A model generated the notes under the pieces. That model was not told the DNA's origin, made no database searches, and was given only the letters and a program-made list of their open reading frames with translations. Below are positions 1,087 to 64,000 of a stretch of DNA of 64,000 nucleotides, one piece after another. Both the position numbers and the translations under genes were made by a program. The stretch covers positions 192,295 to 256,294 of the forward strand of contig CABUUO010000001.1 of the NCBI GenBank assembly GCA_902494875.1. The letters are read 5' to 3'. The DNA is from an uncultured Pseudomonadota bacterium. GTDB lineage: Bacteria > Pseudomonadota > Alphaproteobacteria > RF32 > CAG-239. The stretch's first letter is position 1, and every line of letters begins with the position of its first letter.

Positions 1087-4000
1087 TTAGTTCAATTTAT
1101 CCAACGCTCTGGCCAGAATATAATATACCTTGCCGATATCAGCGCCGGAAATGACCGACAGCAGAATGCCCGAACGTTCGTTGGTTCTGGCCTTGGTAAT
1201 AAGGGATTCAAACTCGGACAGATATTTGGTTACCAGCGTGCGAAACTCCATATTCTTTTCAAACTCGCCGCGGATGGCCAAAACCTGCTGTTTGGTCATG
1301 GTCTTGGAAAGGTAGCGTACAAAGGCCGCCGTATCGCCGTTATAGTACTTCTTCCAAATTTCTTCTTCCGCCGTCGGGTTAAAGATGCGGTTGATATCGA
1401 CCGAAGCGGTTTCCAGTTTTTCTATAATATAAGAAGCGTCTTTCAGGAAGCTGTCAACACGCACGCCCTCATAGCGTCTTTCAAGTTCGGCCAGCTTGCC
1501 GTCAGCCTTCTGTGAGGTCTCGTTCAAAACCTTAAGCTGTTTGTTGACAATATCGCTGAAAGAGATTGACTTTTTAATGATGTCGTCCCCTTTGGCCGAA
1601 AATTCGTTGGTACTGTCATTTAAGACATTCATAACATCGTTGACTTTTTTCAACGTATCGTCGGTTGCAACGACCAAAACGCCGGATTGTTTCAGGAAGA
1701 CTTCGCCCGAAGAACGGATTTCGTTGGAAATGCGCTCGGCATTGGCGGCAACTTCATTCAAGGTTGCGCGCAGTTTGCCGCTTGAGTTTTCAAAATGGGT
1801 GGAACTCATCTTGGTCGCCTCTTCCATCTGCATACTCAAAACTTTCAGGTTCTCGCCGAGGCCTTTGACCTTTTCATAGGCCATATTGGCACGGTTGGAA
1901 AGCTGGAGCGACGTATCGTTCAAAACGGTATTGAAACATTCCACCAGCTGCTTGGTATCTTCGGAAATCTTAATCATCTTGTCGCTCTGAGCGGAGATGA
2001 GATTGTTGATTTCAAAGACGCCGCTGCTGGCTTCAGCCGTAACCGTATTAAAGTTGGCTATGTATTTTTCATAATCTTTCATTACGTTGCCGATTTTGCT
2101 GCTGGAACTGTTAACGTTGACCGCCAAATCGTCAACCAGCTGGCTCAAGGACATGTTAACCTGCTCGACGTTCTTTATCGAATCACGGGAAGATTTGTTG
2201 ATGTCATCATTGACTTTAAGCAGCCTGTCACCCAGTACATTAAATTCATAGGCTATTTTGGCCGAAGTTTCAAATATGGTATCGGTACTGTTTTTGAAGT
2301 TGTTGTTGATTTCATTAACGCGCTGGGCAACTTCAGTCGAAGTGTCGGAAAGATATTTATACTGCTGCGCCAAAGAAGCCTCGCCCAAACGGGTTTGCGT
2401 CGCCACGGTATTGGCAATGTCGGTCAGAACCTCGCGCTGATGTTCGAAACTTTCGCGGATGGAATCCGTCTGGCTGACGGTCCGGTTTAAAATCTCGTCA
2501 ATATTTTTGGCCTGAGCATCCAAAACATCGGTCGTATTTTTGCTTTCAGCCGCCAAATTTTGATTGGCTGCATTAATCTTATCGCAGTTATCCAAAATAG
2601 AATTGGTAAACTCATCAGAACTGACTGTAAGATCTTTAACCGTATTGTTGAAAACCTGAAAGTTTTCTCTGAAAGCCGCGGCAATCTGCGCAATTTTATC
2701 GGAAATCTGCTGAATGAACTTGCTGACGTCATTGTTCTGCACGGCAATCGACTGATTAACCTCCGAAAGCTTGTCAATTGATTTGACGGAGTTGGCCACA
2801 ACCGCCTCAACTCTTTTGTTGACATCCTCTTCCAAAAGCGTCATCCGGGCGAAAACCTTATCGGCGTTCTGCTCAATGACGGCCACCTGTTTTTTGAGAT
2901 TGTTGCCCATATTGTCGGTGTTTTCGGTCAAGCGGTCGCAAATATTGAAAAATTCGTTTTCCTGCTGTTTGAACAACAGATTAATATTTTCAGCCTTTTC
3001 ATCCAAAAGCTGAACCACATCTGCCACATGGTTGACCGTTGCGCCGGTAATCTTGTCCAGCGTTTCATTCTGGCGGGCAAAAGCCTCCGTAATCTGCTGA
3101 AACGCGTTATCGGAGTTGGCAGTAGCAACATTGATGTTGGCAGCCTGTTTTTCCAAAACCTCGGACACATTCTCCGCACGTTCGGAAACACTCTGGGAAA
3201 CCTTATCCAGCTCCTGATAATGGTTGTTTAAAATACCGTCCATACGAATAACCTTATTCAAGGCCTGATCCGCCGTGTTGTCAAAAATGCCGGCCTGCTC
3301 GTTGAGGCTGGCACTGACCATTTTGGTCTTGGCGACAACGTCATTGCAGGAAGAAAGCGTTTCGCCCATCTGCTGTTTAAGCTGGCTGACAGTCGTTTCG
3401 GCTTCCTGCGTCAGATAAGACGCGGCGCGGGTCAACTCATCGATCTGATATTTGAGCTCAACTTTTATTTCTTCAATCCGGTTGACAGATTCCGCAATGT
3501 TTTTCTGCTGCTGAATCAAGGAATTTTCGCCAACCTTACTCTGAGCCACAACCAAGGACGCAGCCTCTTTAAGATTGTCGGTGTGTTTATTGATAACGCC
3601 GCCGATTTCCTCAAGTTCTTTTCTGGAAACATCTGCCTGTTCTTTCAGTCCGATGGTGCTGGCTCCGAGTTCCTGAAGCAGTAACTTCAAGTTCAGTACA
3701 ATACCGTCACTGACCTTCTGCAAAGTTTCACTGCGGCTTCCGACATCTTCGGACAACGCGGCAGACTTAGCCAGATGCTGTTCAGACAATGCCGATAATT
3801 TGGCGGTATTTTCTTCGGCCGAAGAAACCACATTCTGCATATTGTCAATAATTTCGGCTGAACGTTTTTCCAGAGTAACAGAACCGGCAGTCAGACGATT
3901 TTCCACGCCTTTAATATTGTCAAAAATCTCATCGGAAACGCCCTGAAGCTGATTAACCTGCGTGGCAACGCTCTCTTCTATCAAATTGGAACGAGCAATA

Positions 4001-5091
4001 ATCTTGTCGACTTCCATAGAAATCATGGCGTTGTGATCGCTGAATTTTGAAGTCAAAACGTCGCTTTCTTCATTCAGCTTGCCCAAATACCTTTCAACGG
4101 CTTCGCTCTGGCCGCGCAAAACTTCGTCAATTTTGTTAACACCGCCGTCTATCTTGCCATAGATGTCGTCGCAAACGGATACGGCGCCGTTGGCAACTTC
4201 TTCCAGCCGCGCCGTCTGAGAATCAAGTATCTGGATGACATTGTTTACGCTCTGAGCCGCCCGGTCTCCGAAATCAAGCAATGCCTGATTGGCCTTATCC
4301 ATTTTGGAATTGTTGTCATCGGCCATGCTTTGGAGCAACTGAGACGAGGTTTTGAGCTCTTGAATGTGGGGAATGATTTTGCCGAAAAGCTCGCCGCAGT
4401 TATTTTCCAGACCGGCCGCCGTGGCCGAAAAATCATTAATGTAACCCTTAAACATCTGAGTGGAATTCTGCGCACGTTCGGTCACATATTCAAAATTTTC
4501 AACCAGGGTTTTGACGCCGTCGGACAACTCGACAATCGTCTTGGTAGAATAATTGTCCAGCGTGTTGACAAGTTTGGAGAAATCGTTAACGCGGGCGCTC
4601 AGTTCCTTTTTTATCTTTTCGGTCTGCTCGGTTGCATGTTTGGTAACCTCATGGAGTTCAACCACCTGGGAACGGATGGCGTCAGCCATGGCTTTGGCGG
4701 TGTTGGCGCCGCCGTCTTCGGGATAAACGAGCTGATTCATATATGCGCGAAGGAATCTGGCTTCGTTCTTAAAACTGTTGCCGCGGTCAATATAAGCCAT
4801 AACAACCCAGATAATCGCCAAAGGCAGCGTTATGCCGGCCAGAAACGCACCGAACTCGTCGGGCATCATCAGGAAAAGGTTGGACCAGCCAAAAAACTGA
4901 GTAATGTAAATCAGTACGATGATAAACCAGATTACGCTGATGGAAATCATCAGCCTGGTCAGATTATTGTTTAACCAGCTTCCGTTTTCGGTTTCTTCGT
5001 TATAATTAATGCTGCTGGCTTCAGACATAAACCCCGGCAAAGACGAATCACTTTTGGCCGAGTTGTTATTGTCAACTTGTTGATTTGACAT
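1087..5091 (-). CDS. giant membrane-anchored coiled-coil protein, 1334 aa
   Basis: Track ORF. The N-terminus has two hydrophobic helices (ISISVIWFIIVLIYITQFFGW and FGAFLAGITLPLAIIWVVMAYI). About 1150 aa of heptad-like N/Q/E/K/S-rich helical sequence follows, then an approximately 90-aa C-terminal domain. Confidence 0.7.
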   Translation of the reverse strand: MSNQQVDNNNSAKSDSSLPGFMSEASSINYNEETENGSWLNNNLTRLMISISVIWFIIVLIYITQFFGWSNLFLMMPDEFGAFLAGITLPLAIIWVVMAYIDRGNSFKNEARFLRAYMNQLVYPEDGGANTAKAMADAIRSQVVELHEVTKHATEQTEKIKKELSARVNDFSKLVNTLDNYSTKTIVELSDGVKTLVENFEYVTERAQNSTQMFKGYINDFSATAAGLENNCGELFGKIIPHIQELKTSSQLLQSMADDNNSKMDKANQALLDFGDRAAQSVNNVIQILDSQTARLEEVANGAVSVCDDIYGKIDGGVNKIDEVLRGQSEAVERYLGKLNEESDVLTSKFSDHNAMISMEVDKIIARSNLIEESVATQVNQLQGVSDEIFDNIKGVENRLTAGSVTLEKRSAEIIDNMQNVVSSAEENTAKLSALSEQHLAKSAALSEDVGSRSETLQKVSDGIVLNLKLLLQELGASTIGLKEQADVSRKELEEIGGVINKHTDNLKEAASLVVAQSKVGENSLIQQQKNIAESVNRIEEIKVELKYQIDELTRAASYLTQEAETTVSQLKQQMGETLSSCNDVVAKTKMVSASLNEQAGIFDNTADQALNKVIRMDGILNNHYQELDKVSQSVSERAENVSEVLEKQAANINVATANSDNAFQQITEAFARQNETLDKITGATVNHVADVVQLLDEKAENINLLFKQQENEFFNICDRLTENTDNMGNNLKKQVAVIEQNADKVFARMTLLEEDVNKRVEAVVANSVKSIDKLSEVNQSIAVQNNDVSKFIQQISDKIAQIAAAFRENFQVFNNTVKDLTVSSDEFTNSILDNCDKINAANQNLAAESKNTTDVLDAQAKNIDEILNRTVSQTDSIRESFEHQREVLTDIANTVATQTRLGEASLAQQYKYLSDTSTEVAQRVNEINNNFKNSTDTIFETSAKIAYEFNVLGDRLLKVNDDINKSSRDSIKNVEQVNMSLSQLVDDLAVNVNSSSSKIGNVMKDYEKYIANFNTVTAEASSGVFEINNLISAQSDKMIKISEDTKQLVECFNTVLNDTSLQLSNRANMAYEKVKGLGENLKVLSMQMEEATKMSSTHFENSSGKLRATLNEVAANAERISNEIRSSGEVFLKQSGVLVVATDDTLKKVNDVMNVLNDSTNEFSAKGDDIIKKSISFSDIVNKQLKVLNETSQKADGKLAELERRYEGVRVDSFLKDASYIIEKLETASVDINRIFNPTAEEEIWKKYYNGDTAAFVRYLSKTMTKQQVLAIRGEFEKNMEFRTLVTKYLSEFESLITKARTNERSGILLSVISGADIGKVYYILARALDKLN

Positions 5092-16174: not shown

Positions 16175-18817
16175 CTAAAAACGATACTTTGCGTTAATCA
16201 TGCCGGTATGGTTCTGATAATCCTGCCGGAACTGTCCTTCATAACCAAATTCCGCTTCTAAGCGATCATTGACTTCGACCGAAAATCCGGCACCTATTTC
16301 CAGCCCCAAACGATGGAGCCGATCACCTTTGATGACGTATGACGAATTGTTGCTTAAGCCGACTAACGCATTATCGGTATCGGAAATAATATCATAAGTT
16401 AAGGCCAACCGTGCTTCGGGCTGCCAATTGGTTCCGTTGCAGGTTGTAAAGTTTTTTGCAACTCTGGCACCGGCAACTGCCGTTAAGACGTCCATCGTAC
16501 GGGAAGACACCCCCTGCCCCAGCGTATCCGTATAAGCTCCGCGGTCAATGCGGGCATAGCGCATTCCGCCTTCCGGCGTGACGTCAACATTGCCGACATT
16601 CAGTTCATAACCGCTCATCAATTGCAGTCCCAGCGTATCCGTATCATATTTAGATTTGACAATGCGGCCGTAAGCGCTTTTATGTTCTTTATAGTCAGCG
16701 AAGCTGTATGATGCGACAGCATTGAGATACCACTTTGACGGTTTATATTCTCCGTAAATAAAAATCGTATGCGTATCTATGTCCGTATCACGCAAAAAAC
16801 TTTCAACGTCGCTTTGGGTATATGCATAGCCCACACCTGCTTTGCTATTATCTCCGACAGCCTTTTCAAATCCCATGGCCACACCGCCGGATTTTGTATC
16901 AAAACCGTGCGTTTTAGAATTATCGTCAAGTTTTGATTTGTTCGCCAGCATCTGCACCCAGGAGGCTCCTTTATCAAAAATTCCGTCTCCGGCAGACATA
17001 CCGGGTAAAATGCCGGAGACAACGCCACCCGACAGCCTTGACGATACGGCATTAAAGACCTGAGAACTATGCTCGGTGGCAGCCGTTCTGGCTAACGGCG
17101 CGGCATCGGGAGCCAGAGCATAGGCTCCATCGACTATTTTTCCGCTGTCACTTCCGTTCTGAAGCGAAGTATTTATATAGTCCGCAATATCGTTAAAACT
17201 CTGATTGGAACCGTGACCGTTGGTAAAAGCATTGATGAGGCCGGCATTGTTTTTGCTCGTATTTAAAGCGCCTGCAATTTCCGTCTCTGTTTTCTTACCG
17301 CTGTAGAGTAATGAACCGTCATCGTTCAGTGCAAAATTGTAAAGATTATTGCTTATGTCAAATTTTCCTTCAATATGACCGCTTTGCAAGATGTCATAAC
17401 TGCCGATTTCCGTATCGGAATTAACTATCAGATTAAGCTTGGCGCCATCTTCAATGTTCAGTTCATCGGCTTTAATCGAAGCGTATTCAGAAGTGTCTTT
17501 TATACCGATATTCAGTTTGGAATTGCCGTTAAAGCTAATCGAACCGCCGGAGACCGAAGCTGTCGATGCCAGTGTAACTTCGGCATCGTTGACATTTATT
17601 TCTCCGTTGCCATCTATACCGCCGGTAAAAGATGTATGTCCGGATGAAATAGTCACTACGGAAGCATTATGAATATCATTTAATTTTCCGGCGGCGGTAT
17701 TGCCTTGAAAAATATTGTTCCCGCTCAAAGTCAGCGCTGCGTTTTTCTCTCCCCAAATAGCACCGCCGCTTGATGACGCTTTATTATTTATAAAAACGGA
17801 ATCTGAAATTTCCAATTGGCCGCCATTCCATTCTTCATTATATACAGCTCCGCCATTAACCGCCTGATTTTCTTCAAAACGCGTATTATAAATATGCATT
17901 TTTCCCTGATTATTAATCGCACCGCCTGAGGCATACCAACCGCCGGAGACCTTGTTATTGTAAAAATAGCTGTTGCGAATGGTCGTTTCGGCCGAAGGTC
18001 TGGCAAACAAAGCGCCACCCAAAGCCATAGATCCGACACTCACACTGTTATTGGCCATTATAACATTATCCAAATCGGCTTTACCGGCATTGGTTATTGT
18101 AGCATGAACCGTTCCACCACTTAAGCTGCTGCCCGAAATAGAAGAATCAAAAATTTTCAGGGAGCCGCCTTCTTTATTGAAAATTAACCCGGCATCCCCA
18201 TTGCTGACAAAATTGTACAAACCGCTTTTCTCATCAGCAGAATTACCGATATTTTCAAGGATAAGCTCTTTATCGCTATTTATAACAAAACCGATTTTGT
18301 TGTTGCCATTTATGGAATGACCGTTTCCATTAACAATTAAGACATCTGCACTCTGCCCCTCAATACTATTTTCTAAGGTTATATCACCGGTCAAATTAAT
18401 TTTTTCCGTACCGTTTTGTACCAGAAAAGAAAAATTTTTTCCGTTATCGGTAGTTACATCCCGGCTTAAAACCAAATGCAGAGTACTGTCTTTCCGGATG
18501 GAATAATCCTGAAGCGTATTGCCTGCCGCCAAACTGCTACCGGCAAAAGTCAACAGTTGGTTTTCCGGCGAAACACCTTCTTTATCATATATTTGGGCCA
18601 TAATATCTTCAATTCTGTCTGTCGGTTCGACTTCAAGGGTAATATGCTTGCCGCTCAGCGTTTTTACAAAAATCTGCATTGCCGAGGCATTTTCAGCACC
18701 AAGTATCATTACGGCAAACAATCCGGCATTAATCAACGCGCACTTCTTTAAAACGGAACGATATTTTGAAGTCAATACCTTTAAGGCGGTACGGGAATAT
18801 TTCATAAAGCTCTCCAT
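16175..18817 (-). CDS. autotransporter with an N-terminal ubiquitin-like domain and Pmp-type (GGA[ILV]/FxxN) passenger repeats
   Basis: 880 aa with an extended signal peptide. A 72-aa block, [72 protein letters not shown], is about 65% identical to eukaryotic ubiquitin by eye. It ends in LVLS, not LRLRGG. GGAI/FxxN repeats follow. The C-terminus ends ...NAKYRF, a typical terminal-Phe OM beta-barrel signature. Confidence 0.8.
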
Positions 18818-18908
18818 ATTTTGTCAATTGCCACATTCAATTAATAATGTATACGTATTAACATTATGTAAACATTGTATAAAAAACACTACTTTAAGAT
18901 GCGACAAC

Positions 18909-18947
18909 AAAAAAAAGAGGAAACAGTGCTGTTTCCTCTTTTTTTCT
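18909..18947 (-). terminator. intrinsic terminator downstream of the 193-aa gene
   Basis: Perfect 11-bp stem AGAGGAAACAG/CTGTTTCCTCT with a 2-nt loop, flanked by A8 and T7. Confidence 0.65.
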
Positions 18948-18961
18948 GCCCGTTTAACATA

Positions 18962-19543
18962 TTATTCAATACAGCAGTCTACGGCCTTGCGGACAAAAGC
19001 TTTCATTTTGGCTAAGGCTCCCTGCGGCGCCTTTTCTTCATCTGCGGACGGAGCAGCTGCAACGGCTTCATTAACCTTGGCGGTCAGTTTCTTTACGTCG
19101 TCAACATTGTCTTCAATCCATTTGACATCATTGATGTTGAGCATATTCATATTCAGCCCCCAGAACAGACAATATAGCTCATAAGCCTGATTAAACAAAT
19201 CATACGCGGCTTCCTTATGGCCGAGGCTCTGCTGTTTGGTTCCGACCTCCATCAGACGCATGGAAGAAGCCAGCAGATGTTTGGAGATGCACCATACCTC
19301 CCCTTCATAAGACGGAATGATTTTTTGCATCAGGGTCTTGCGCTTTTCGCGAACTTCTTCAATCAGATCATAAAAAGCAGTTTTACCGGTTTTGGCGCCG
19401 GAAAAGACCAGATGTTCTTCAATCGAAATCAGATTCATAATCGCAATGGTCAGATCCTGGTCCGAAGACAAATCTTTGGGGTTAACTTTTTTGGAGCTGT
19501 CTATTCTTTCAACAAACTCTTTTACGTTTTTGGCTTTGTTCAT
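18962..19543 (-). CDS. hypothetical protein, 193 aa
   Basis: Track ORF. A perfect 11-bp-stem terminator lies just downstream. It sits 4 nt from the next gene. Confidence 0.5.
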   Translation of the reverse strand: MNKAKNVKEFVERIDSSKKVNPKDLSSDQDLTIAIMNLISIEEHLVFSGAKTGKTAFYDLIEEVREKRKTLMQKIIPSYEGEVWCISKHLLASSMRLMEVGTKQQSLGHKEAAYDLFNQAYELYCLFWGLNMNMLNINDVKWIEDNVDDVKKLTAKVNEAVAAAPSADEEKAPQGALAKMKAFVRKAVDCCIE

Positions 19544-19547
19544 GATA

Positions 19548-20084
19548 TTACTCCATAAAATTTAACAGATCATCGGCACGGGCGCACAGCGGATTATAAT
19601 AAAACCAGGTACTGATTAACGCCAATGCAGCAACCGGTACAAAAACCTTTTCAAACGGAAAGTGTGCATGACCGCCGTTTCGGGCTTTCATCCACTGATA
19701 AAATTTGGAAGAATAAATCAGAGCCAGAGCACCGACGATGACGCTGAACAGAAACGGATCAATGTAAAAAATCAAGATAGAAATCGGCTCATAGGTCATT
19801 TTGCTGACATACATAAAACCGATCATGGCAACGGAAAGCGCAATCAGCAAAACGTCACGTCCCTTGAAATTCCAGCCCTTCTTGTCAAACCAGACAATAC
19901 ACCAGTATCCAAGCAAAGCCAGAAAAGCGCCGGCCCAAACACCGACGACGCTGTCGTCAACGCCGAAATGGCGGGCTATTTCCAAAGAAGCGCCGACGGC
20001 AATGGTGCAGACAGCGCAGGCCGGATTGGCCCAGGCATTGAAACTAAAGGCGGTAACGAACATTAAAATTAATATACAAGCCAT
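19548..20084 (-). CDS. hypothetical integral membrane protein, 178 aa, about 4 TM
   Basis: Track ORF with four long hydrophobic segments; co-oriented and adjacent to the 193-aa ORF and SulP. Confidence 0.5.
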   Translation of the reverse strand: MACILILMFVTAFSFNAWANPACAVCTIAVGASLEIARHFGVDDSVVGVWAGAFLALLGYWCIVWFDKKGWNFKGRDVLLIALSVAMIGFMYVSKMTYEPISILIFYIDPFLFSVIVGALALIYSSKFYQWMKARNGGHAHFPFEKVFVPVAALALISTWFYYNPLCARADDLLNFME

Positions 20085-54801: not shown

Positions 54802-55260
54802 ATGTCAATAAACAAAATACGTTTTCTGGGGCTGTTAGCGCTGTTTTCAATCTGCGGATGTTCCAACGACCTGTTTTTAACCCATAACGGCAATATGCCT
54901 TCCAACGAACGGATCGCCAAGGTAAAAGTAGGCGATTCAAAAAATCAGGTCATTTCACAGCTCGGCTCGCCCTCTTCCGTCGTATCTTTAGACCAGAATA
55001 CCTGGATATATATGTCGTCAGACATTAAGCGCGTGGCTTTCATGGCGCCCAAGGAAGTCAGCAGAGACGTTCTGACCATTGAATTTGATCCCAAAGGCAA
55101 AGTTGAAAACATTAAACGTCTGACCAAAAAAGACGGCGTTGAGGTTGCCGTCAGCGAGGAAAAAACCGACGCACTCGGTCATCAGCCCGGATTTTTTGAG
55201 AAATTTTTCGGCGGTATCGGCAACTATGCACCATTTCCGGGTATCAAAGATCAGATGTAG
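54802..55260 (+). CDS. bamE: outer-membrane lipoprotein BamE (SmpA/OmlA)
   Basis: 152 aa; lipobox LFSICGCS; SmpA/OmlA-like core; followed by a hairpin-T6 terminator. Confidence 0.65.
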   Translation: MSINKIRFLGLLALFSICGCSNDLFLTHNGNMPSNERIAKVKVGDSKNQVISQLGSPSSVVSLDQNTWIYMSSDIKRVAFMAPKEVSRDVLTIEFDPKGKVENIKRLTKKDGVEVAVSEEKTDALGHQPGFFEKFFGGIGNYAPFPGIKDQM

Positions 55261-55275
55261 TCCTTTAAATTTTCA

Positions 55276-55304
55276 GAAAAAGCGCCCCACAGGGCGCTTT
55301 TTTG
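55276..55304 (+). terminator. intrinsic terminator after bamE, at the boundary of the low-GC island
   Basis: A5-AGCGCCC-CACA-GGGCGCT-T6. Confidence 0.6.
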
Positions 55305-55468
55305 TTATATTTTATTCTACTTTTAGTTTTATTATGTATTTTTAATTGATATAAAATCACTTTTAAATTGCATTATTAAAAATAATAGGTATTATACCTC
55401 TGCATAGCCCCTGACCCGGGACAAAAACTTAAAGAAATACATTTTTTATGTTAGGCGTGTTCAGATAA

Positions 55469-56386
55469 ATGCAGAAAAAATATCCCCATAAAATTGCGGT
55501 TCAGATATTCGGCCATTTGCGCAGTTATAAAAACTGCATTTCCGCTCTGAAGAAAAATCTTTTGGATCGATATGACTGTGATGTATTTATGCATTGCTGG
55601 GACGTTTCGGACTACACTCAAAATACATCCGTCACTAAAGATGAGATTGCACATATTAAAAGTATGTACGCCTTAAAAGATTTTAAAATGGAATCTCAAA
55701 AAAAACATGAGCCCATGCGTATTCCGTGTCTCGCAACGAGCAAAGCACAGCACATTGACATTTATGCGATGAAAAATATGCTGTATTCAATGCAGCAGGC
55801 CAATCACCTGAGAAAACTGTATCAACAGAAAAAAAACATAAAATACGATATTGTTATCTGCATCCGCCCTGACATATATCTGAAGAGTCCCATCCCCCTT
55901 GATTTGTTTTTATCCGAAATGTCCGTTTTGGGCGCATCACTAAAAAACAAACGTTTTTGCGCTGTTAATTATAATAAGCGGCAAAAAAATTATATTTTAA
56001 GTACCGATTTGGCCAGTGACATTATAACCTTTGCAGAACAGGACACTATGGATGCCATTATATCGGCTCTGTCACAAATTGACTTTGTCAAAGAACAAAA
56101 ACGGTTTTGGAATCCGGAAAGTTTTTATTCTGCCGTTTTGGAAGAACACGGCATTTCGTCGTATGCCATTACCTATAATTATCGGGACAACTGGGAAATT
56201 ATGCGTCCCATATATTTAAAATCTTTGAATGTTCGGCGGCTGCGTAAAAAAATCATTAAAATTCATATCAACAAGCGGGAGCTGCGCGTTTTTTTATTTA
56301 ATTTCATTCCCAAAGAAGTTTTTAATTTTGAAGCCGTTTTTTTTGAGAAATTTACAATACAATTTTGCATAGGAATTCCGAAATGA
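55469..56386 (+). CDS. hypothetical protein, 305 aa; first gene of the low-GC island
   Basis: Track ORF in about 30% GC DNA; the stop overlaps the next start (ATGA). Confidence 0.5.
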   Translation: MQKKYPHKIAVQIFGHLRSYKNCISALKKNLLDRYDCDVFMHCWDVSDYTQNTSVTKDEIAHIKSMYALKDFKMESQKKHEPMRIPCLATSKAQHIDIYAMKNMLYSMQQANHLRKLYQQKKNIKYDIVICIRPDIYLKSPIPLDLFLSEMSVLGASLKNKRFCAVNYNKRQKNYILSTDLASDIITFAEQDTMDAIISALSQIDFVKEQKRFWNPESFYSAVLEEHGISSYAITYNYRDNWEIMRPIYLKSLNVRRLRKKIIKIHINKRELRVFLFNFIPKEVFNFEAVFFEKFTIQFCIGIPK

Positions 56387-58008
56387 CAAATACCATCATT
56401 TTATCTGCAGGAAAATTTAACCCCAAGAACATTTCAGCCGGCATGATCAGCGATCCCGGTTTGTTGCCAATCAGAGGTAAACCAGCTATCAACTGGTGCA
56501 TAGACTCTGCAATGAAAAACGGAGCTGAGAATATTAAAATTATTCTCAGAGAAAGCAATACGCGCCTCAGCCGCTTTCTAGGATACAGTTACCCCGAAGT
56601 TCAGCAGTATTTCATTGACAGCAACTCTGACTTTTCATCATCCGTATTGAACATTTTATCCGATTGCGACGAAAACCAGCCCACACAAATTATTCTCGGA
56701 GACACGCTTATTGACGAACCGTTTCCGGATGAGGCCGATGTTTTCTTATCTTCACCAAACATCAAAGCTTCCAAGCAATGGTGTCTGGTTACGAAAGACG
56801 ATCAAAACCATATTGAAAGAATATATAACAAAGAACGTGACATATCTATTGCCGGCAAAGAGGCCTTGGTTGGTTATTATAAATTTTCAGACACAGCCCT
56901 GTTAAAGAAACTCACCGCTCTGGAGTTAAAATCACCAAATTGCAGTTTTATTAACATTTTGCTCAATTATAACCGCAAACATCCGATTGTTATTAAAACG
57001 ACGCAGAGATGGTTCGACTTCGGCCATATCAGCGGCGCGGTTCAGGCCAGATTGGGATTGTTCAGCGCTAGGGAATTCAATTCGCTCAAAGTTGATGCCG
57101 TACGCGGAACCATTACCAAAATATCAAAGAAAAAACAAAAGCTTTTGGATGAGGCAAACTGGTATCAAAAACTTCCGGCGGACGTATCGTGTTACGCTCC
57201 CCGGGTTTTCAATGTTACCGAAACAGATGAACTTGCCAGCGTAGAAATGGAGCTTTACGGCTATGCCAATTTAGCAGAAACTTTTATTTACGGTTCCAAC
57301 AATCTGGAAGACTGGTACAACATTATTGAAGCGTTGTTAAAGGTGCATAAAGTCTTTGAAAATTATACCGAACCACAAAACAAAGAAGAGCTGGAAGAAA
57401 TTTACCGCAGCAAAACCCGGCAAAGAATAAATGACATTCAGAACAAAAATCCTGAAATTGCCAAAATGATGCAAAGCGATTATTTATCCATCAATAATGT
57501 TCATTATAAAAATTATCCTTTGTTGAAAAAAAGCCTAGATAAAGAAATTGATGCTCTGACAAACTATCCCAAAAGGACAATTGTCCATGGAGACTATTGT
57601 TTTTCCAATATTTTATTTGACCCGATGCATTATATTTTCAAACTGATTGATCCCCGCGGCAGATTCAAAACGCAAAGTATTTACGGAGATCCCCGTTATG
57701 ATATTGCAAAACTTCGCCACAGCATCGTCGGACTGTATGATTTTATAGTCGCCGGATTATACAAATTGAAAATTGCGGCTCCGGACGTATATGAATTTCA
57801 AATTTCTACGCCGATTTTAACTGAAAAGCTCGAACCTTTCTTTGACGAACTGGTTGTTGAATACGGATATGACCGCAGAGAAATAAAACTTATTGAGGCT
57901 CTGCTCTTTTTAACCATGATTCCTCTGCATGCCGACGACGTTAACAGACAAAAAGCTTTTTACCTTACTGCAATTCAAAAACTAAACGAGGTTTTATATG
58001 ATGAATAA
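56383..58008 (+). CDS. bifunctional nucleotidyltransferase / APH-choline-kinase-like kinase fusion
   Basis: The real start is MTNTIILSAGKFNP. The N-terminal ~230 aa are sugar-phosphate nucleotidyltransferase-like. The C-terminal ~300 aa carry the kinase catalytic loop HGDYCFSNILFD and IDPRG of the APH/ChoK fold. Confidence 0.55.
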   Translation: MTNTIILSAGKFNPKNISAGMISDPGLLPIRGKPAINWCIDSAMKNGAENIKIILRESNTRLSRFLGYSYPEVQQYFIDSNSDFSSSVLNILSDCDENQPTQIILGDTLIDEPFPDEADVFLSSPNIKASKQWCLVTKDDQNHIERIYNKERDISIAGKEALVGYYKFSDTALLKKLTALELKSPNCSFINILLNYNRKHPIVIKTTQRWFDFGHISGAVQARLGLFSAREFNSLKVDAVRGTITKISKKKQKLLDEANWYQKLPADVSCYAPRVFNVTETDELASVEMELYGYANLAETFIYGSNNLEDWYNIIEALLKVHKVFENYTEPQNKEELEEIYRSKTRQRINDIQNKNPEIAKMMQSDYLSINNVHYKNYPLLKKSLDKEIDALTNYPKRTIVHGDYCFSNILFDPMHYIFKLIDPRGRFKTQSIYGDPRYDIAKLRHSIVGLYDFIVAGLYKLKIAAPDVYEFQISTPILTEKLEPFFDELVVEYGYDRREIKLIEALLFLTMIPLHADDVNRQKAFYLTAIQKLNEVLYDE

Positions 58009-58384
58009 TGAAAAAAAGTTGAGAATATGCATAGATCTTGACGGAACAATCTGCGAGATCAGAAAAGATCCTCAAACTTATGCCGACGTTAAGGCCAAGC
58101 CCGGTGCCAAAGAACGTATTCATGCGTTAAGGGCCGCCGGCCATACCGTTATTATCAATACTGCACGCAATATGGGATCAACCGGACATAATGTCGGCAA
58201 GGCTCTAAAAAATGTCGGTAAGATGACTTTTGAATGGTTAGAGAAAAACGGAATTGAATATGACGAGATATTTTTCGGCAAACCTAATGCAGATATTACC
58301 ATTGATGACCGAGTTGTCCGTTTTGAAGACAACTGGGAAGAAATGACAGAAGATGTGTTAAATAAAGCTGCAAAAGCGAAATAG
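57998..58384 (+). CDS. small HAD-superfamily phosphatase
   Basis: 128 aa; DxDGT motif (CIDLDGTIC), later GKPN and IDD motifs; overlaps the upstream gene by 11 nt. Confidence 0.55.
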   Translation: MMNNEKKLRICIDLDGTICEIRKDPQTYADVKAKPGAKERIHALRAAGHTVIINTARNMGSTGHNVGKALKNVGKMTFEWLEKNGIEYDEIFFGKPNADITIDDRVVRFEDNWEEMTEDVLNKAAKAK

Positions 58385-58392
58385 GTGTTAAA

Positions 58393-59112
58393 ATGTTAAA
58401 TATTGTAATTCCGATGGCCGGTGCCGGCAGCCGTTTCAAAGCGCAAGGCTATGATTTGCCCAAGCCGTTTATTGACATTAACGGCAAAATGATGATTGAG
58501 CATGTTCTTGACGGTATAAACTATCCGAACGCACACTATACCCTGATTATTCAAAAGCAATTTGAAACAGAAAATCGTGACCAGTTGGAAAAACTTTCCA
58601 AACACTATCATGTTGCGTTTCTTTCTGTTGACAAACTGACACAAGGAGCTTGCTGCACGGCTCTGGCCAGCCATGAAATCATCAACAACAATCTTCCCGT
58701 TATTTTTGCAGATTCTGATAATATTTTTGATAATCTGGCCTTTCAAAATTTTGTCAAAGACTGTTTGGATCGGAAGCTCGACGGCAGTCTGCTTACATTT
58801 AACACGCAAGAGGCTTGTTTTTCTTTTGTGGAAACGGATGAGAACGGCTATGCCCTGCGAACAAAAGAAAAAGAAGTTATCTCCAATCATGCAATTACGG
58901 GAGTTTATATGTTTCGCCGCGGAGCCGATTTTGTAAAAAACGCTATAGACATGATGATATACGGCGATAAGGCAAAAAATGAATATTACATGAGCAATGT
59001 CTATAATCACGCAATAAAAAACGGAGCTCAAATAGGCATTTATGACATTCATGTTCAAGACTGGGCGTGTGTCGGCACCCCCGAACAATTGAAAAAATAT
59101 CTGGGAGACTGA
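58393..59112 (+). CDS. sugar-phosphate nucleotidyltransferase
   Basis: 239 aa; N-terminal MLNIVIPMAGAGSRF and C-terminal DWACVGTPEQL match the NDP-sugar pyrophosphorylase fold signature. Confidence 0.7.
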   Translation: MLNIVIPMAGAGSRFKAQGYDLPKPFIDINGKMMIEHVLDGINYPNAHYTLIIQKQFETENRDQLEKLSKHYHVAFLSVDKLTQGACCTALASHEIINNNLPVIFADSDNIFDNLAFQNFVKDCLDRKLDGSLLTFNTQEACFSFVETDENGYALRTKEKEVISNHAITGVYMFRRGADFVKNAIDMMIYGDKAKNEYYMSNVYNHAIKNGAQIGIYDIHVQDWACVGTPEQLKKYLGD

Positions 59113-59113
59113 A

Positions 59114-61089
59114 ATGCATAGTACCCTCTCCGAAACCCATTTGTTCATTCTTTGGCCGAACGGAAGACAAAAAGAAAAAGAAGTTATGGAAATTGTAAAG
59201 AAAAATTTCCAGATTTTGAAGCTTTATGAAATATTATGGTCGCAAGATAAAATTTTAGATAACTACACTTCCTTTTACGGCTTTGACCACTCTCAAAACC
59301 ACAACATAATCAATGAGCGAGGGGGGGGTATTTTCTACTTATGATTGTTAGAGACAATAATCCAAAGTACGAAAACAGAATGACTTCAAAAGGAATGGTT
59401 CCTGTTAACATTAATACATCAGATGTTAAATCATATATCAGAAATGTTATTTTTCAGGGAATAAACCTGCTTCATGGAACCAACTCTGAAGAAGAAACCA
59501 GACATGACTTAGCTCTGTTACTGGGACGCAGCCTTTCTGACTTTTTAAAAGAAACCAAACTTGATGGGGCATTAGAAAAATTATCTCAAAATCTTCCGGC
59601 AGTAGACGGATGGAAAAGTCTTTCTCAGGTATTTTATATTCTTAATGAAACATGCAGATACGCTGTTTTGAGAGGTTTTGAAAAACTTCCAGGCAATTTT
59701 ACTCCTTTTGACGGGGATATCGATCTTTTGATTGAAGACCCTCAGTGCTTTACTTATACCTTAATGTCAGCCCAGTCTGACGGTTCCAATGATTTCGCTT
59801 TTGCCAATTTAGTAAAAGTTAAAGACAGTATTTTCAGTTTTCATACCAAATATATAGGCGACGGTTATTATGACACCCGGATGTCGCAAAAAATTATTGA
59901 CACGAGACAAAAAAATAAAGCAGGCATTTATATTCCGTCTGATGAAATGTATTTTTACGAACTTTTATACCATGGCATTATACATAAAACCAATTATTTA
60001 AAATATGCTGACATTTTTAAAACCTTGGCTTCAGAATTAAAAATAGAAAAATTTAACCTAGAGTTTTCTTATTTAAAAAAACTGATAAATACGTGGCTGA
60101 AAAACAACAATTACAAATGCCCTCTTCATTTAGACCATACGAGAAGCAGGCATAATGAGAACATATCCGAAAAAAAACTGATAAAAGATATTCCCGATAT
60201 ATATATTTATCAAAATCATACGGATACAATCATCTTCAGTTCTTTATTAATAGCACGGCATCCGGGCCTAGCCTCCAGATATACAAAAATATGCGGTCCT
60301 TATCATAATTGGCAGCAGCATCTCTTGTCTCCGGAACATAAACTTTACAAAGAGATGTCTCGTAAGGCGGCAAAGGGACAAATTGCCTGGATTTTCAAAA
60401 AAAGATTTGGCCGGATAATGTTGACGACATTGACGGTAAAATCCGGAGAAACCATTTTTACCAGAAAGATATTAGGAACCCCGCAAGATATTGAATCTCC
60501 ATATCTGATTGTCACGGCAGATAAAAAAAGGAAATTTATTGCCGGAAACAACGTAGGAAATATCTTAAGTTCAATAAAAGATTCAAATATTCTCAAGATA
60601 GAACTGGAGAAATTCGTTGGTGAAGTTTTTTCGCAGTATCGTACCGGCAATGCTGCTTTATTGCAGCCAAACGCATGGGATGCCGTACCTCATAATTGCA
60701 TTTTAACCAATGAAAACAATTATTGTTTTTTTGATTTTGAGTATTCATTAAAACACGGCGTTGACAAGTCATATATGCTATGGAGAATTATCCGTCATAC
60801 CAATATGATAATACAAGACAAATTTTCTCTATATGATGAATTCTGCAAAAAGTTTAATCTTGAAAATAAGTTTTTCTGGTGTGAATTTCTGGATGCTAAA
60901 ATTCATGAAAGGCTCTTAGACGCATACTCTATGCCTCCGAGTTTTATTAATAAAATAAAAAAGTTTTTAATTAATCTGACGGTTACACCAATCGCTCAAA
61001 AAAATTTACGAGATAAATACAGAAAAAAACTGGAACGTCATTTTCTTTTTTTCAACCAAAAATTATGGAAAAGATATTTTATTAACTAG
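59114..61089 (+). pseudogene. large hypothetical protein split by a G8 homopolymer (76-aa ORF plus 582-aa ORF); G9 would give one 658-aa product
   Basis: ORF 59114..59344 is in frame 2 and ORF 59341..61089 is in frame 1. The frame-1 reading is open from 59317, across the G tract at 59321-59328. Inserting one G fuses ...NERGGG to YFLLMIVRDNN... without a stop. Confidence 0.55.
59321..59328 (+). repeat. poly-G homopolymer (G8), candidate slipped-strand phase-variation tract
   Basis: GGGGGGGG in a region of roughly 30% GC; its length determines the reading frame of the 658-aa gene. Confidence 0.6.
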
Positions 61090-61105
61090 CAAATGAGAGG
61101 TTTTA

Positions 61106-61923
61106 ATGAATAAAAATAAAATTTATAATAAGCTTATAAAGTTATTATCTTATTTCATTCCGCTGTCAAATAACAGAAAAAACTTTCGTAAAAAATTTCT
61201 AAAAAACAACATTTGTGCTGATGTTTCTTCCAGTATAGTAAATTATGGTCATAACAACATTGTAAAATTAATTCTGGAAAATGGTGAAGAAATTATAAAT
61301 CCTGCTATTTCTGGCCTAAAAATCATATTTTACGGAAATAATAATCTGGTTGTCTTGCATTCTCCAATTCAATTTCGGGCATCTACATTTGAGATGCAGT
61401 CTGATTCTTTGATTAACATACAAAAAAGCAAATATTTTTTATGTAATCTAAATATTTCTCCTATGAACAATAATACACTATTAATAGGCAGAGATTTTTC
61501 CTGTTCATCTGTTAATATCCGTTTACATGATGAACCCAAGCTTACTGTTAAAATAGGCGATGATTGTATGTTTTCTCATGATATTGAAATTCGTTCGAGT
61601 GATGGGCATACAATATTAAACAGAAAGACAAAAGAGATATTAAATCCAGCAACAGACATTAAAATTGGCAACCATGTTTGGATTGGCATGAGATGTATTT
61701 TATTAAAAAATACACAAATTCCAGATCATTCTATACTCGGCGCTAATTCTCTCATAAATAAATCTTTTTCCGCCTCACACAACCGGGGGGGGTGGTTATT
61801 GCAGGGATACCCGCCAAGATTGTCAAGAACGATATTGTTTGGCTTAGGCACAGTACAAATCTAGCCTCTGAAGAAATTATAGACGATTTCTACAAAGAAT
61901 ATAAAATTAATATGAAGGAATAA
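61106..61923 (+). pseudogene. hexapeptide-repeat (left-handed beta-helix) acetyltransferase truncated by a G8 tract; G9 would give a 272-aa product
   Basis: The track ORF ends ...SHNRGGWLLQGYPPRLSRTILFGLGTVQI*. The +1 frame after the tract reads VVIAGIPAKIVKNDIVWLRHSTNL...KINMKE*, the canonical C-terminus of LbH acetyltransferases. The upstream part has IKIGNHVWIGMRCILLKNTQIPDHSILGANSLI hexapeptide repeats. Confidence 0.65.
61785..61792 (+). repeat. poly-G homopolymer (G8), candidate slipped-strand phase-variation tract
   Basis: GGGGGGGG followed by TGG; inserting one G restores the acetyltransferase C-terminus. Confidence 0.6.
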
Positions 61924-61927
61924 TAGT

Positions 61928-63148
61928 ATGAAGACGCTACAGAAAGCTATAATTACGCCAACTTTTTCAGGACATTTTGGTTATATAAAAAACTATTTAA
62001 AAAGTTTCGATCGTTATCTTATAGATCGTGATTTTCCAATATTTTTTATTATAAATAAAAATGAAAACAGTATTTTTTCTCCTATTATCCAAAAGTACCG
62101 TAATCGTTTAAATTTAAATGTAATTTTTCTTGATGATATTTTTGAACATTTCAAAATTGACGAAACACCGGAAGAAGCCTTAAGCAAATATGGACGTTTA
62201 TCTTTTCAAACATTAAAAAAATTTTACGGGGCATTATACGTTAATGCTAAAGAATTTTTATTTCTTGATTCAGAGAGTATGTTAATAAAACCAACGAACA
62301 TATCTCTGCTTTTCGATGATTATTTTAAAAAACCAACATTTTTTATTTCTCGAATATCTGAGAGGGCTCAAGGCTTCAAAGAAAACTTTACATATGAATT
62401 TTTAAATGCGGTTACAAACCTTTTAGGAAAAAAACCAGAGTACTGGAGTATTGAATCTTATGAATGGTTTTATAAACTAGACATATTGAAAGATCTGATA
62501 AATGATTTGGGAACACCTATCGAAATTGTAAAGAACTATAAAATGCCCGGTAAGTTTCCAAATATCGAAGGAATTCTGGAAGCTCTTCTTTATTATCAAT
62601 ATATTTTATACCACAATGACAAATACGGCTATACAATCAAAATAATAGAAGATGAGCTCAGAGAAGCTCTGGGAGATAATAACTATAAGAGATTCCGTCA
62701 GTATTTTGACAAATCGCCCTTTTTTATATGTGGCGTTTTAGAAACGGCAATGTTTTTTATCGATAAGGACAATGCTGATGGTTTCATTCATTTCCTAAAC
62801 AAATATAAAATCCGTTTATTACGTGTAGAAGATCCTAAAATTAACAATGCAACGGCCCAAATAAAAATAATTAAGAATACGGGAATTCATATTTGTCCAT
62901 CTTCTCAGAACCATATCTTTGGAATAAACAGTACAATAAAAAAACGTTTCAATATACTGATAGGAAATAACAGAAATATTCAAAAACTGAAAAAACATTT
63001 TACTAAATTTGCCAAACCATTCATTTTTATTTGCAAGCCATTTCTGGCTACGATTAAATGGATGTTTGAAATTATTCCCATTTGCATTTATTCATTGAAA
63101 TCATTGAATATCGTTTTGAAAAATCTAAAAAATATATTGTTTGGGTGA
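61928..63148 (+). CDS. hypothetical protein, 406 aa (possible glycosyltransferase-like)
   Basis: Track ORF in the island; no motif I can name with confidence. Confidence 0.45.
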   Translation: MKTLQKAIITPTFSGHFGYIKNYLKSFDRYLIDRDFPIFFIINKNENSIFSPIIQKYRNRLNLNVIFLDDIFEHFKIDETPEEALSKYGRLSFQTLKKFYGALYVNAKEFLFLDSESMLIKPTNISLLFDDYFKKPTFFISRISERAQGFKENFTYEFLNAVTNLLGKKPEYWSIESYEWFYKLDILKDLINDLGTPIEIVKNYKMPGKFPNIEGILEALLYYQYILYHNDKYGYTIKIIEDELREALGDNNYKRFRQYFDKSPFFICGVLETAMFFIDKDNADGFIHFLNKYKIRLLRVEDPKINNATAQIKIIKNTGIHICPSSQNHIFGINSTIKKRFNILIGNNRNIQKLKKHFTKFAKPFIFICKPFLATIKWMFEIIPICIYSLKSLNIVLKNLKNILFG

Positions 63149-63157
63149 TTTGCAAAA

Positions 63158-64000
63158 ATGACTAATATACAAAAATCAGACATCACATTCATATGCAGCG
63201 GCAAGATATTTGCAGGAAAAAAATTTAATACTCTTGCATCAATAAAATCCGTAAAAAAATATTTTCCTGAATCCAAGATAATTCTTTCGACATGGGAAGG
63301 AGAAAATATTGAGCCTTTTGAAAAATTCTGTGATTTAATAATATTAAATCCATGCATGGAAATGAAATATCATACTTGTTTGGAATCATGTTCTTGGTAC
63401 CCTAAATTGAATTCTTATGATTTGCAGCAAAAGAGCGTCAATGCCGCATTACGACAATGTAAAACTAAATATGCCGTTCGGTTCAGAACCGATTTTGTTC
63501 TTAAAAATGACAACTTTTTAAAAAAGTACATTGAATTTGAAAATATCTTTGATCGGTTTGTACCTGAATATAAAATATTTCAGAACAAAGTTCTGATTCA
63601 TCAAACCGGAACAATTTCTCCTTATACCAAAGATGTTCCGATGCTTCATCATCCTTCAGAATTATTCCATTTTGGTCTAACTGAGGATTTATTGAAAATA
63701 TGGACCGGAAAGAATATGCCAGAAAAGATTGCAGATTACTTTCATGATGAAAACCATAATGAGAGCAATCCGTGTCTTTTTAATCATAGATATACACCAG
63801 AACAGTATATTTGGTTAAAAATGCTTGATGATTCCGGTGTCGGCTACGAAAAACCGGACTATTATCTTTCCTTTTCCGAAAAAATGAGACAAGAACAAGA
63901 CAGGCTTTTCATTTCTAATTTCATTATTCTTGATGCGCAAGGCTTGGGAATATCATCGAAATTTGATGAAAAATTGAAACATGTACAACATCGTTTTTAT
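63158..64000 (+). CDS. hypothetical protein, 5' part; the ORF is open to the window end
   Basis: ATG at 63158, which I translated by hand as MTNIQKSDITFICSGKIFAGKKFNTLASIKSVKKYFPESKIILSTWEGENIEPF... The frame stays open to 64000. It is absent from the track because it has no stop in the window. Confidence 0.5.
   Translation, partial: MTNIQKSDITFICSGKIFAGKKFNTLASIKSVKKYFPESKIILSTWEGENIEPFEKFCDLIILNPCMEMKYHTCLESCSWYPKLNSYDLQQKSVNAALRQCKTKYAVRFRTDFVLKNDNFLKKYIEFENIFDRFVPEYKIFQNKVLIHQTGTISPYTKDVPMLHHPSELFHFGLTEDLLKIWTGKNMPEKIADYFHDENHNESNPCLFNHRYTPEQYIWLKMLDDSGVGYEKPDYYLSFSEKMRQEQDRLFISNFIILDAQGLGISSKFDEKLKHVQHRFY

Follow-up and report, generated by a model that had tools for sequence, protein, structure and literature searches.

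A ubiquitin domain at the head of a Pmp-like autotransporter from an apparently human-gut alphaproteobacterium, and its relation to a wider set of predicted exported bacterial ubiquitins

Ubiquitin is regarded as an intracellular signal of eukaryotes. In the literature that could be searched, only BfUbb of Bacteroides fragilis and BoUbb of B. ovatus are described as bacterial homologues of eukaryotic ubiquitin, the second having been reported in 2024 (PMC11467351). Both gain entry through SusCD and block a periplasmic prolyl isomerase (PMC5705921, PMC11467351), and a C-terminal disulfide is reported to be crucial for the activity of each (PMC11467351). Here we describe a gene from contig CABUUO010000001.1 of an uncultured alphaproteobacterium, found on a stretch of 64,000 nucleotides (positions 192,295 to 256,294 of the forward strand; from this point on, the window). 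It lies on the minus strand, most likely at 16175..18805, and encodes a protein of 876 residues which is a secreted bacterial ubiquitin homologue joined to an autotransporter resembling the chlamydial polymorphic membrane proteins (Pmp), partners that each belong to a kind already known. We know of no Pmp with a ubiquitin head, and a literature search that left most subscription journals outside its reach returned no paper on ubiquitin-autotransporters or on the wider family discussed below. A first-pass annotation of the window had called the architecture undescribed. For the searchable papers this stands; in the public databases, by contrast, such proteins are already present under automatic names, one example, with both PF00240 and PF03797, being 'secreted protein containing Ubiquitin [Rhodopirellula maiorica SM1]'.

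Residues 43-114 of the protein (18464..18679, minus strand) make up the ubiquitin-fold domain, as recognized by Pfam, PDB search, AlphaFold2, Foldseek and alignment. PF00240 matches over profile positions 1-71 of 72 with an E-value of 3.8e-20 (71.9 bits against a cut-off of 25.4), and a PDB sequence search returns ubiquitin chains at about 1e-25. Counted on the 880-residue open reading frame (ORF; 16175..18817, minus strand), residues 47-118 are identical to human ubiquitin at 47 of 72 positions (65%). In an AlphaFold2 model built from 64 sequences (mean predicted local distance difference test score, pLDDT, 86.1; predicted template-modelling score 0.69), the strands and helix of this beta-grasp domain fall at the ubiquitin positions, and Foldseek places the modelled domain on ubiquitin with a root-mean-square deviation of 0.8 Å over 72 residues and a target template-modelling score of about 0.9. 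A second ubiquitin copy was sought in the window and not found.

The residues through which eukaryotic ubiquitin is used fare less well than the fold. Lysines K6, K11, K33 and K63 are retained, whereas K27, K29 and K48 are replaced by Met, Gln and Ser, respectively. Among the recognition residues, R42, I44 and R72 have become Leu, Thr and Ser, while L8, H68 and V70 are kept in the window copy; the L8-I44-V70 patch, together with R42 and R72, is variable both across the fusion family and across the group of bacterial ubiquitins referred to below as type A, so the surface expected of a ligand for eukaryotic receptors is not conserved. The block ends in SRDVT (LVLSRDVT) and runs on into the passenger, lacking the free C-terminal LRLRGG of a conjugatable modifier. 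Gly-Gly is absent from all seven fusion proteins, and the window domain contains no cysteine. Because the Gly-Gly tail is missing and the C-terminus is peptide-bonded to the stalk, conjugation is not possible. Changes in the fusion family relative to the Trichomonas-type consensus are concentrated at positions 6-12, 26-31, 36-52 and 68-72, which are the surfaces used by the partners of ubiquitin in eukaryotes, and residues 13-25 and 53-67 are kept. We conclude that the ubiquitin domain is most likely a head module and not a ubiquitin signal.

Preceding the domain is a putative extended signal peptide of 42 residues (18680..18805, minus strand), recognized from sequence and conservation. By eye, a basic n-region leads into a hydrophobic core of 16 residues and then A-S-A, with low pLDDT at residues 20-39. 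It is nearly invariant in the seven fusion proteins and common also to the ubiquitin-less autotransporters of paralogue type. Relatives match the ESPR model PF13018, for which the window protein gives no match. As judged from the sequence, this is probably a Sec signal peptide, cut after A-S-A to give a mature protein that starts MQIFVK. Behind the ubiquitin domain, a cap helix (residues 122-130) leads into a right-handed beta-helix passenger (residues about 135-505; together 17291..18463, minus strand) that is supported by the AlphaFold2 model, with pLDDT mostly above 85, by motif counts and by Pfam and TIGRFAM models. The passenger contains four GGA[ILV] motifs, where 0.19 are expected, and eight FxxN motifs; these form three ordered FxxN...GGA[ILV] pairs, and just 15 of 2000 shuffles give even one pair. 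The Pmp repeat models are barely passed (Chlam_PMP PF02415, 21.2 bits against 20.6; TIGR01376, 17.8 against 15). No Pmp middle-domain family is found in the protein by a Pfam scan at E<=0.1, and because of this, and because the organism is an alphaproteobacterium, we use the term Pmp-like rather than Pmp.

A helical junction follows (residues 506-610; 16976..17290, minus strand; AlphaFold2 and TIGR01414). The model has helices over residues 507-588, and the region is 100% identical in a 90% orthologue of the whole protein. Its linker helix, residues 571-588, is expected from the model to sit in the barrel pore. Residues 611-876 (16178..16975, minus strand) form a 12-strand autotransporter beta-barrel ending ...KYRF, ahead of a TAG stop codon at 16175..16177 on the same strand. 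PF03797 matches with E=7.6e-47 and TIGR01414 with 6e-26, the latter covering residues 573-880; the modelled barrel (residues 613-875) retrieves EstA, NalP, EspP and BrkA in Foldseek at E-values from 1e-12 to 1e-9. By barrel family, by its 12 strands and by the aromatic residue at its end (...AKYRF, a terminal Phe), the protein is a predicted classical (type Va) autotransporter. The first-pass annotation, made from the letters alone, had given the same layout: a signal peptide, then at once a ubiquitin block identical to the eukaryotic protein at about 47 of 72 positions, with K6, K11, K33 and K63 conserved, Ser for K48 and SRDVT for the diglycine tail, then a passenger with paired GGA[ILV] and FxxN motifs, and last a terminal-Phe barrel. 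It proves right in all these details; the changes at R42, I44 and R72 had escaped it.

The fusion is not confined to this genome. Six further clusters (P0002-P0007), 45-90% identical to the window protein, share the same junction, AxA followed by MQIFV, and five of them (P0003-P0007) retain the architecture at only 45-57% identity. Measured against the window copy, identity across the family is 56-76% in the ubiquitin domain, 26-53% in the beta-helix and 57-61% in the barrel. A second set of proteins (L012 and P0011-P0071) has the signal peptide in common with the window protein (64% over residues 1-42) as well as the C-terminal half (39%), but has no ubiquitin; in L012, nothing separates the predicted cleavage site from the beta-helix cap that comes after it. 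This layout, in conjunction with the shared signal peptide and C-terminal half, implies that an autotransporter already existed and that ubiquitin was placed immediately after its signal peptide. Sequence comparison thus suggests that ubiquitin entered an existing Pmp-like autotransporter family in this lineage and has been retained since.

The identical 876-residue protein occurs on at least 18 contigs assembled independently, in separate studies and with different assemblers, including the metagenome-assembled genome (MAG) GCA_964314275.1. Gene order is constant: MatE, radical SAM, MalQ, SulP and two unannotated genes, then the ubiquitin-autotransporter gene and the convergent ppiD, and beyond it tpiA, secG, pyrG, kdsA, recO and parC. 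Synteny is the same for the 90% orthologue, whose MAGs bear the title 'uncultured Alphaproteobacteria bacterium'. By sample and record names, the carrier looks like an organism of the human gut. The chimeric assembly against which the first-pass annotation had cautioned is contradicted by these 18 or more contigs in one synteny and by six diverged clusters with one junction. Selection on the gene is purifying; against the 90% orthologue, the ratio of non-synonymous to synonymous substitution rates (dN/dS) in the ubiquitin segment is 0.30. A recent transfer of ubiquitin was considered and rejected: the segment has a GC content of 0.43, and both its GC and its GC at third codon positions agree with the remainder of the gene, so its acquisition is not recent. 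A separate observation from the same comparison (16175-18805 against L007:8001-10634) is that synonymous divergence is very uneven along the gene, being highest in the beta-helix (0.35), lower in ubiquitin (0.14) and lowest in linker and barrel (0.06), a pattern suggestive of recombination or of a mosaic history in the exposed passenger.

With respect to origin, other ubiquitin domains from bacteria match the window domain at 52-55 of 72 positions, which is more than human ubiquitin does (47 of 72). A single scan of species-representative genomes gave 79 bacterial ORFs with a signal peptide and ubiquitin, and these fall into three ubiquitin types. Type A is defined by the signature H12 T20 R22 D25 N54 Q57 S60 D64, which the window domain carries complete. 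Of the extracted domains, 27 have the full signature; 25 of these come from loci in bacterial genomes spanning several phyla, and the remaining two are the window copy and its own alignment row. Carriers include Ruminococcaceae, Christensenellaceae and another gut alphaproteobacterium, and near-variants occur in Parabacteroides, Muribaculaceae and a Nomurabacteria MAG. The type-A consensus, to which the window domain is 77% identical, scores 155.8 bits on 5xy3_m against 138.5 on human ubiquitin; PDB 5XY3 is the Trichomonas vaginalis ribosome (PMC8860606). The same consensus is also seen in metagenomes as head-to-tail polyubiquitin fragments, with LRLRGG running directly into MQIF. A further metagenomic protein, P0072 (498 residues), is eukaryote-looking and has three ubiquitin-like repeats, the third being near type A (Lys for N54) and having LRLRGG at its end; the protein is possibly encoded by a protist allied to the donor lineage.

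The other two types have different affinities. Type C, with signature N20 S22 A25 K54 (Entamoeba-type), is found in rumen and gut Clostridia (L027, L038, L054, L058, L061, L062 and L070-L072). For its consensus, Entamoeba histolytica ubiquitin 4GSW is the top match among single-copy ubiquitin chains (154.4 bits) and human ubiquitin stays below threshold, which indicates that a different gut protist was the donor in a separate transfer. Type B is nearly canonical, reaching identity at 68 of 72 positions and sometimes keeping LRLRGG, and is hosted by Verrucomicrobia, Planctomycetes, Chlorobi, Conexibacter, Paenibacillus and Rhodobacteraceae. In some bacterial signal-peptide-ubiquitin proteins (L033, L034, L052 and others), the full LRLRGG is retained and followed by further sequence, as in Conexibacter sp. 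CPCC 206217, where 68 of 72 positions are identical to human ubiquitin. Judging by sequence, ubiquitin would have passed from eukaryotes to bacteria several times independently, and its domains would then have spread and been shuffled within the bacteria.

Modules of a signal peptide and ubiquitin are present at no fewer than 167 loci in bacterial species genomes, found in a single pattern scan with relatives confirmed by tblastn; 80 of the 167 were returned, nearly all with the signal-peptide-ubiquitin junction. Some stand without a partner as free secreted proteins of 100-140 residues, which NCBI names 'ubiquitin-like protein'. Elsewhere the module is joined to SLH anchors, Flg_new or InlB-type repeats, BspA-type leucine-rich repeats (LRR_5), GLUG, cadherin-like or Big_9 domains and, in one more case, to an endonuclease/exonuclease/phosphatase domain. 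Carriers include lake, marine and soil bacteria. Two or three different genes of this kind can occur in one genome, as in CAMUZD01 (L053, L079 and L084) and RUG13820 (L034 and L063). An all-against-all comparison of 837 neighbouring ORFs from 76 other loci with the module identified only generic ABC ATPases as conserved neighbours. Predicted export of captured ubiquitin is widespread among bacteria and apparently undescribed.

Autotransporter barrels have been recruited to ubiquitin more than once. Rhodopirellula maiorica SM1, Novipirellula and the alphaproteobacterium UBA6062 encode minimal ubiquitin-autotransporters of 483-541 residues, consisting of a signal peptide, a canonical-type ubiquitin, a linker of ~100 residues and a barrel, such that ubiquitin is essentially the sole passenger. 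Identity to the window barrel is only about 20% for the barrels from planctomycetes, and the barrel of UBA6062 (L077) gives no blastp match to it at E<=1e-3. On these comparisons, the planctomycete and UBA6062 proteins are independent fusions, and ubiquitin has been joined to autotransporter barrels independently at least three times. Surface display of ubiquitin would then have been selected repeatedly. In other Pirellulaceae, orthologues of the Rhodopirellula protein (P0285-P0293) have the same length and are 45-49% identical over linker and barrel, and the head is an unrelated segment of about 115 residues which is not ubiquitin, swapped on a conserved linker-barrel chassis. Different heads on one chassis imply that ubiquitin acts as exchangeable displayed cargo. 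An additional locus, from the gut alphaproteobacterial MAG BRZ_LA bin12 (L013:5977-7135), has a 101-residue ORF of signal peptide and type-A ubiquitin and, downstream in another frame and lacking a signal peptide, an ORF of linker and barrel. A run of seven A lies at the junction, where a one-base change would join both ORFs into a minimal ubiquitin-barrel autotransporter; the split could be phase variation at the homopolymer or a sequencing error.

The reading we consider probable is that the window gene encodes a functional type Va autotransporter that displays a non-conjugatable, Trichomonas-type ubiquitin as its head, where it would bind a partner or cap an adhesin-like stalk. On this account, Sec would export the protein by way of its 42-residue signal peptide, and signal peptidase I would cut after A-S-A to leave Met1 of ubiquitin as the mature N-terminus. 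The C-terminal 12-strand barrel, going by family membership and predicted fold, would insert into the outer membrane, its pore occupied by the linker helix. From the known working of the family, the passenger should exit C-terminus first and fold as a Pmp-like beta-helix stalk, and the order of domains would have ubiquitin exit last, to come to rest at the tip farthest from the cell. The source of the head may have been a large pool of signal peptide and ubiquitin modules that bacteria took from eukaryotes, protists among them, and joined to many different surface-protein scaffolds.

Several points weigh against the account just given. Ubiquitin is a fast-folding and stable protein, and a folded N-terminal domain could hinder passage along the autotransporter route, although the natural minimal ubiquitin-autotransporters argue that export presumably works. 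The high conservation of ubiquitin may in part be due to how tightly a small fold is packed, and not to binding, and its dN/dS of 0.30 is not below that of other passenger segments. The junction of A with MQIFV in the 79 extracted loci was set by the search pattern and is hence not independent evidence. Finally, the assignment to Trichomonas is drawn from bit scores and metagenomic polyubiquitin fragments.

The strongest rival is that ubiquitin has no specific ligand and is a structural cap or secretion aid, a stable, protease-resistant and fast-folding N-terminal domain that protects or nucleates the end of large exported repeat proteins where proteases abound, as in the gut. Several observations favour this: the module fronts very different scaffolds in many phyla and habitats, residues L8, R42, I44, V70 and R72 drift while core residues are invariant, the dN/dS of ubiquitin equals that of the stalk, and no conserved partner gene is nearby. 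Even so, the minimal autotransporters, with ubiquitin as near-sole passenger, leave nothing to cap, and many ubiquitins are secreted free, at 100-140 residues. Other small stable folds are abundant as well, and the repeated choice of ubiquitin would be left unexplained. An inert cap is in our view unlikely.

Taken further, the wider pattern could mean that many phyla repeatedly captured the ubiquitin of the eukaryotes living beside them as an exported surface module, with Trichomonas- and Entamoeba-type domains in gut and rumen bacteria and the canonical type in aquatic and soil bacteria, and that the ubiquitin-tipped autotransporter engages a specific extracellular partner. We hold this to be distinctly unlikely. 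If it were true, the tip would engage protists, host cells or other bacteria, for instance in attachment to, or escape from, phagocytic protists, ubiquitin would have an extracellular biology that has so far gone unrecognized, and surface mimicry between kingdoms would gain a new class.

An improbable reading is that the displayed or released domain antagonizes competitor bacteria in the manner of BfUbb. BfUbb and BoUbb, the sole characterized bacterial ubiquitin homologues, are both toxins with a signal for signal peptidase I (PMC5705921, PMC11467351), and the apparent habitat is the gut in their case and here. Many small free signal-peptide-ubiquitin proteins occur in gut Firmicutes, and a partner elsewhere is the endonuclease/exonuclease/phosphatase domain noted above. 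Yet the disulfide that is crucial in BfUbb and BoUbb has no counterpart in the cysteine-free window domain, which is also tethered to a large stalk and barrel in place of being a free protein of 76 residues. Nothing resembling an immunity gene, nor any other conserved neighbour, accompanies it, and ppiD is convergent and not conserved beside diverged homologues.

More improbable still is mimicry of eukaryotic ubiquitin, whether it interferes with host signalling or, as antigenic or surface mimicry, targets the host immune system or phagocytic gut protists, whose ubiquitin type the domain carries. In its favour, identity is 65% to human ubiquitin and 77% to the Trichomonas-type consensus, the bacterial types match gut protists (Trichomonas and Entamoeba), and BfUbb, for which antigenic mimicry has been proposed, is cross-reactive with anti-ubiquitin antibodies (PMC3352274, PMC6194340). 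Signalling interference, which the first-pass annotation had proposed, is nonetheless poorly supported and is the weakest of the functional readings. The domain is of Trichomonas type and nearer to bacterial domains, it has no Gly-Gly, and I44, R42, K48 and R72 are replaced in it and not conserved in the family. It is moreover predicted to be exported outside the cell and would therefore be out of reach for the cytosolic machinery of a host. Nor does the suggestion of a eukaryote-associated mimic hold up: the window has no pointer to an intracellular lifestyle and no sign of effector secretion into a host cytosol, and lake, marine and soil bacteria carry the module too. This last point also tells against antigenic or surface mimicry, as does the window copy being among the most diverged from any eukaryotic ubiquitin. 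That the gene is a product of chimeric assembly, of contamination with eukaryotic DNA or of pseudogene decay has next to no chance of being correct, given its independent assemblies in a housekeeping synteny, a frame that is intact, a junction conserved in seven clusters, purifying selection and a composition like that of the host gene, with no support for such an artefact beyond one related oddity, the gene of locus L013, split by a frameshift at the A7 run.

The wider pattern, in which protist ubiquitins are captured repeatedly and exported on many scaffolds, is of more interest than the single gene. Types of ubiquitin specific to protists would document gene transfer from gut protists to bacteria, and the window gene offers a clean, conserved and apparently human-gut model for asking what role extracellular ubiquitin plays in bacteria. 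Ubiquitin mimicry by gut bacteria has, in addition, been proposed as a link to autoimmune disease.

As for expression, the start was placed at the second ATG of the ORF (18805) because a Shine-Dalgarno sequence, GGAG (18812..18815, minus strand), lies 6 nt ahead of it, because homologues agree, all beginning M[KR]YSRTAL, and because gene callers in public assemblies use the same ATG. Farther upstream, a consensus scan gives a weak sigma-70-like promoter match, TTTACA and CATTAT at a spacing of 17 (9 of 12 positions; 18844..18872, minus strand). Direct reading of the sequence reveals a hairpin at 18909..18945, not assigned to a strand and not listed by the scan, with the form A8-GAGGAAACAG-TGCT-GTTTCCTC-T7. 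It looks like the terminator of an upstream gene of 193 residues, parting that gene from the ubiquitin-autotransporter gene. Given the promoter-like site, the upstream hairpin and the lack of conserved neighbours, the ubiquitin-autotransporter gene appears to be its own transcription unit. The two upstream genes (18962-20084, minus strand) encode 193 residues and a predicted membrane protein of 178 residues, give no family in a Pfam scan and are syntenic in close relatives alone. An operon with them was rejected, as the hairpin and promoter-like site intervene and both genes are absent from diverged loci. A link to ppiD, suspected because BfUbb targets a prolyl isomerase, was likewise rejected: the genes are convergent, and ppiD is not found beside the diverged fusion genes P0004, P0006 and P0007. 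We treat the adjacency as coincidence.

The rest of the 64-kb window holds ordinary housekeeping genes and one flavodiiron-type protein. Positions 55000-64000 have a GC content of 0.30-0.39 against ~0.45-0.50 in the remainder, encode a nucleotidyl transferase, an APH-type kinase and a hexapeptide transferase along with ORFs of 582 and 406 residues that have no Pfam match, and may be an island for surface polysaccharide or decoration. A 1334-residue ORF at 1087-5091 (minus strand), for which Pfam gives only sub-threshold hits (ATG17-like, DUF948), may be a long coiled-coil protein.

Set beside known systems, the window protein reprises features of four. Like BfUbb and BoUbb (PMC3352274, PMC5705921, PMC11467351), it has a eukaryote-derived ubiquitin directly behind a signal for signal peptidase I in an apparent gut bacterium, with no usable Gly-Gly tail and about 60-65% identity to human ubiquitin. 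BfUbb, however, is a free 76-residue protein with a C-terminal disulfide and a toxin acting on a periplasmic prolyl isomerase, while the window domain lacks cysteine and forms the head of an 876-residue autotransporter, with about 760 further residues fused to it. Their affinities also differ, the nearest reported relative of BfUbb being an entomopoxvirus ubiquitin and the window domain bearing a Trichomonas-type signature. With the chlamydial Pmp proteins it shares a C-terminal barrel ending in Phe, a beta-helix in which FxxN and GGA[ILV] motifs are paired and, by prediction, a Sec signal; it departs from them in having just four GGA[ILV] and eight FxxN motifs, no middle domain in the Pfam scan and an alphaproteobacterial host. 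The combination of signal peptide, ubiquitin and autotransporter barrel recurs in the Rhodopirellula maiorica SM1 protein and its relatives (P0281-P0284, P0294-P0296, L041, L060 and L077), which exist as database entries alone and, unlike the window protein, have a canonical ubiquitin, no beta-helix and a linker of ~100 residues. Finally, as in eukaryotic polyubiquitin, ubiquitin-eL40 and ubiquitin-eS31, ubiquitin is here the N-terminal module of a longer protein. Those eukaryotic fusions are cut after Gly76, which frees the ubiquitin, whereas in the window protein the Gly-Gly site is gone, the domain stays attached and export is predicted, a fate that eukaryotic ubiquitin does not have. Such eukaryotic ubiquitin-fusion genes are likely the ultimate source of the window domain.

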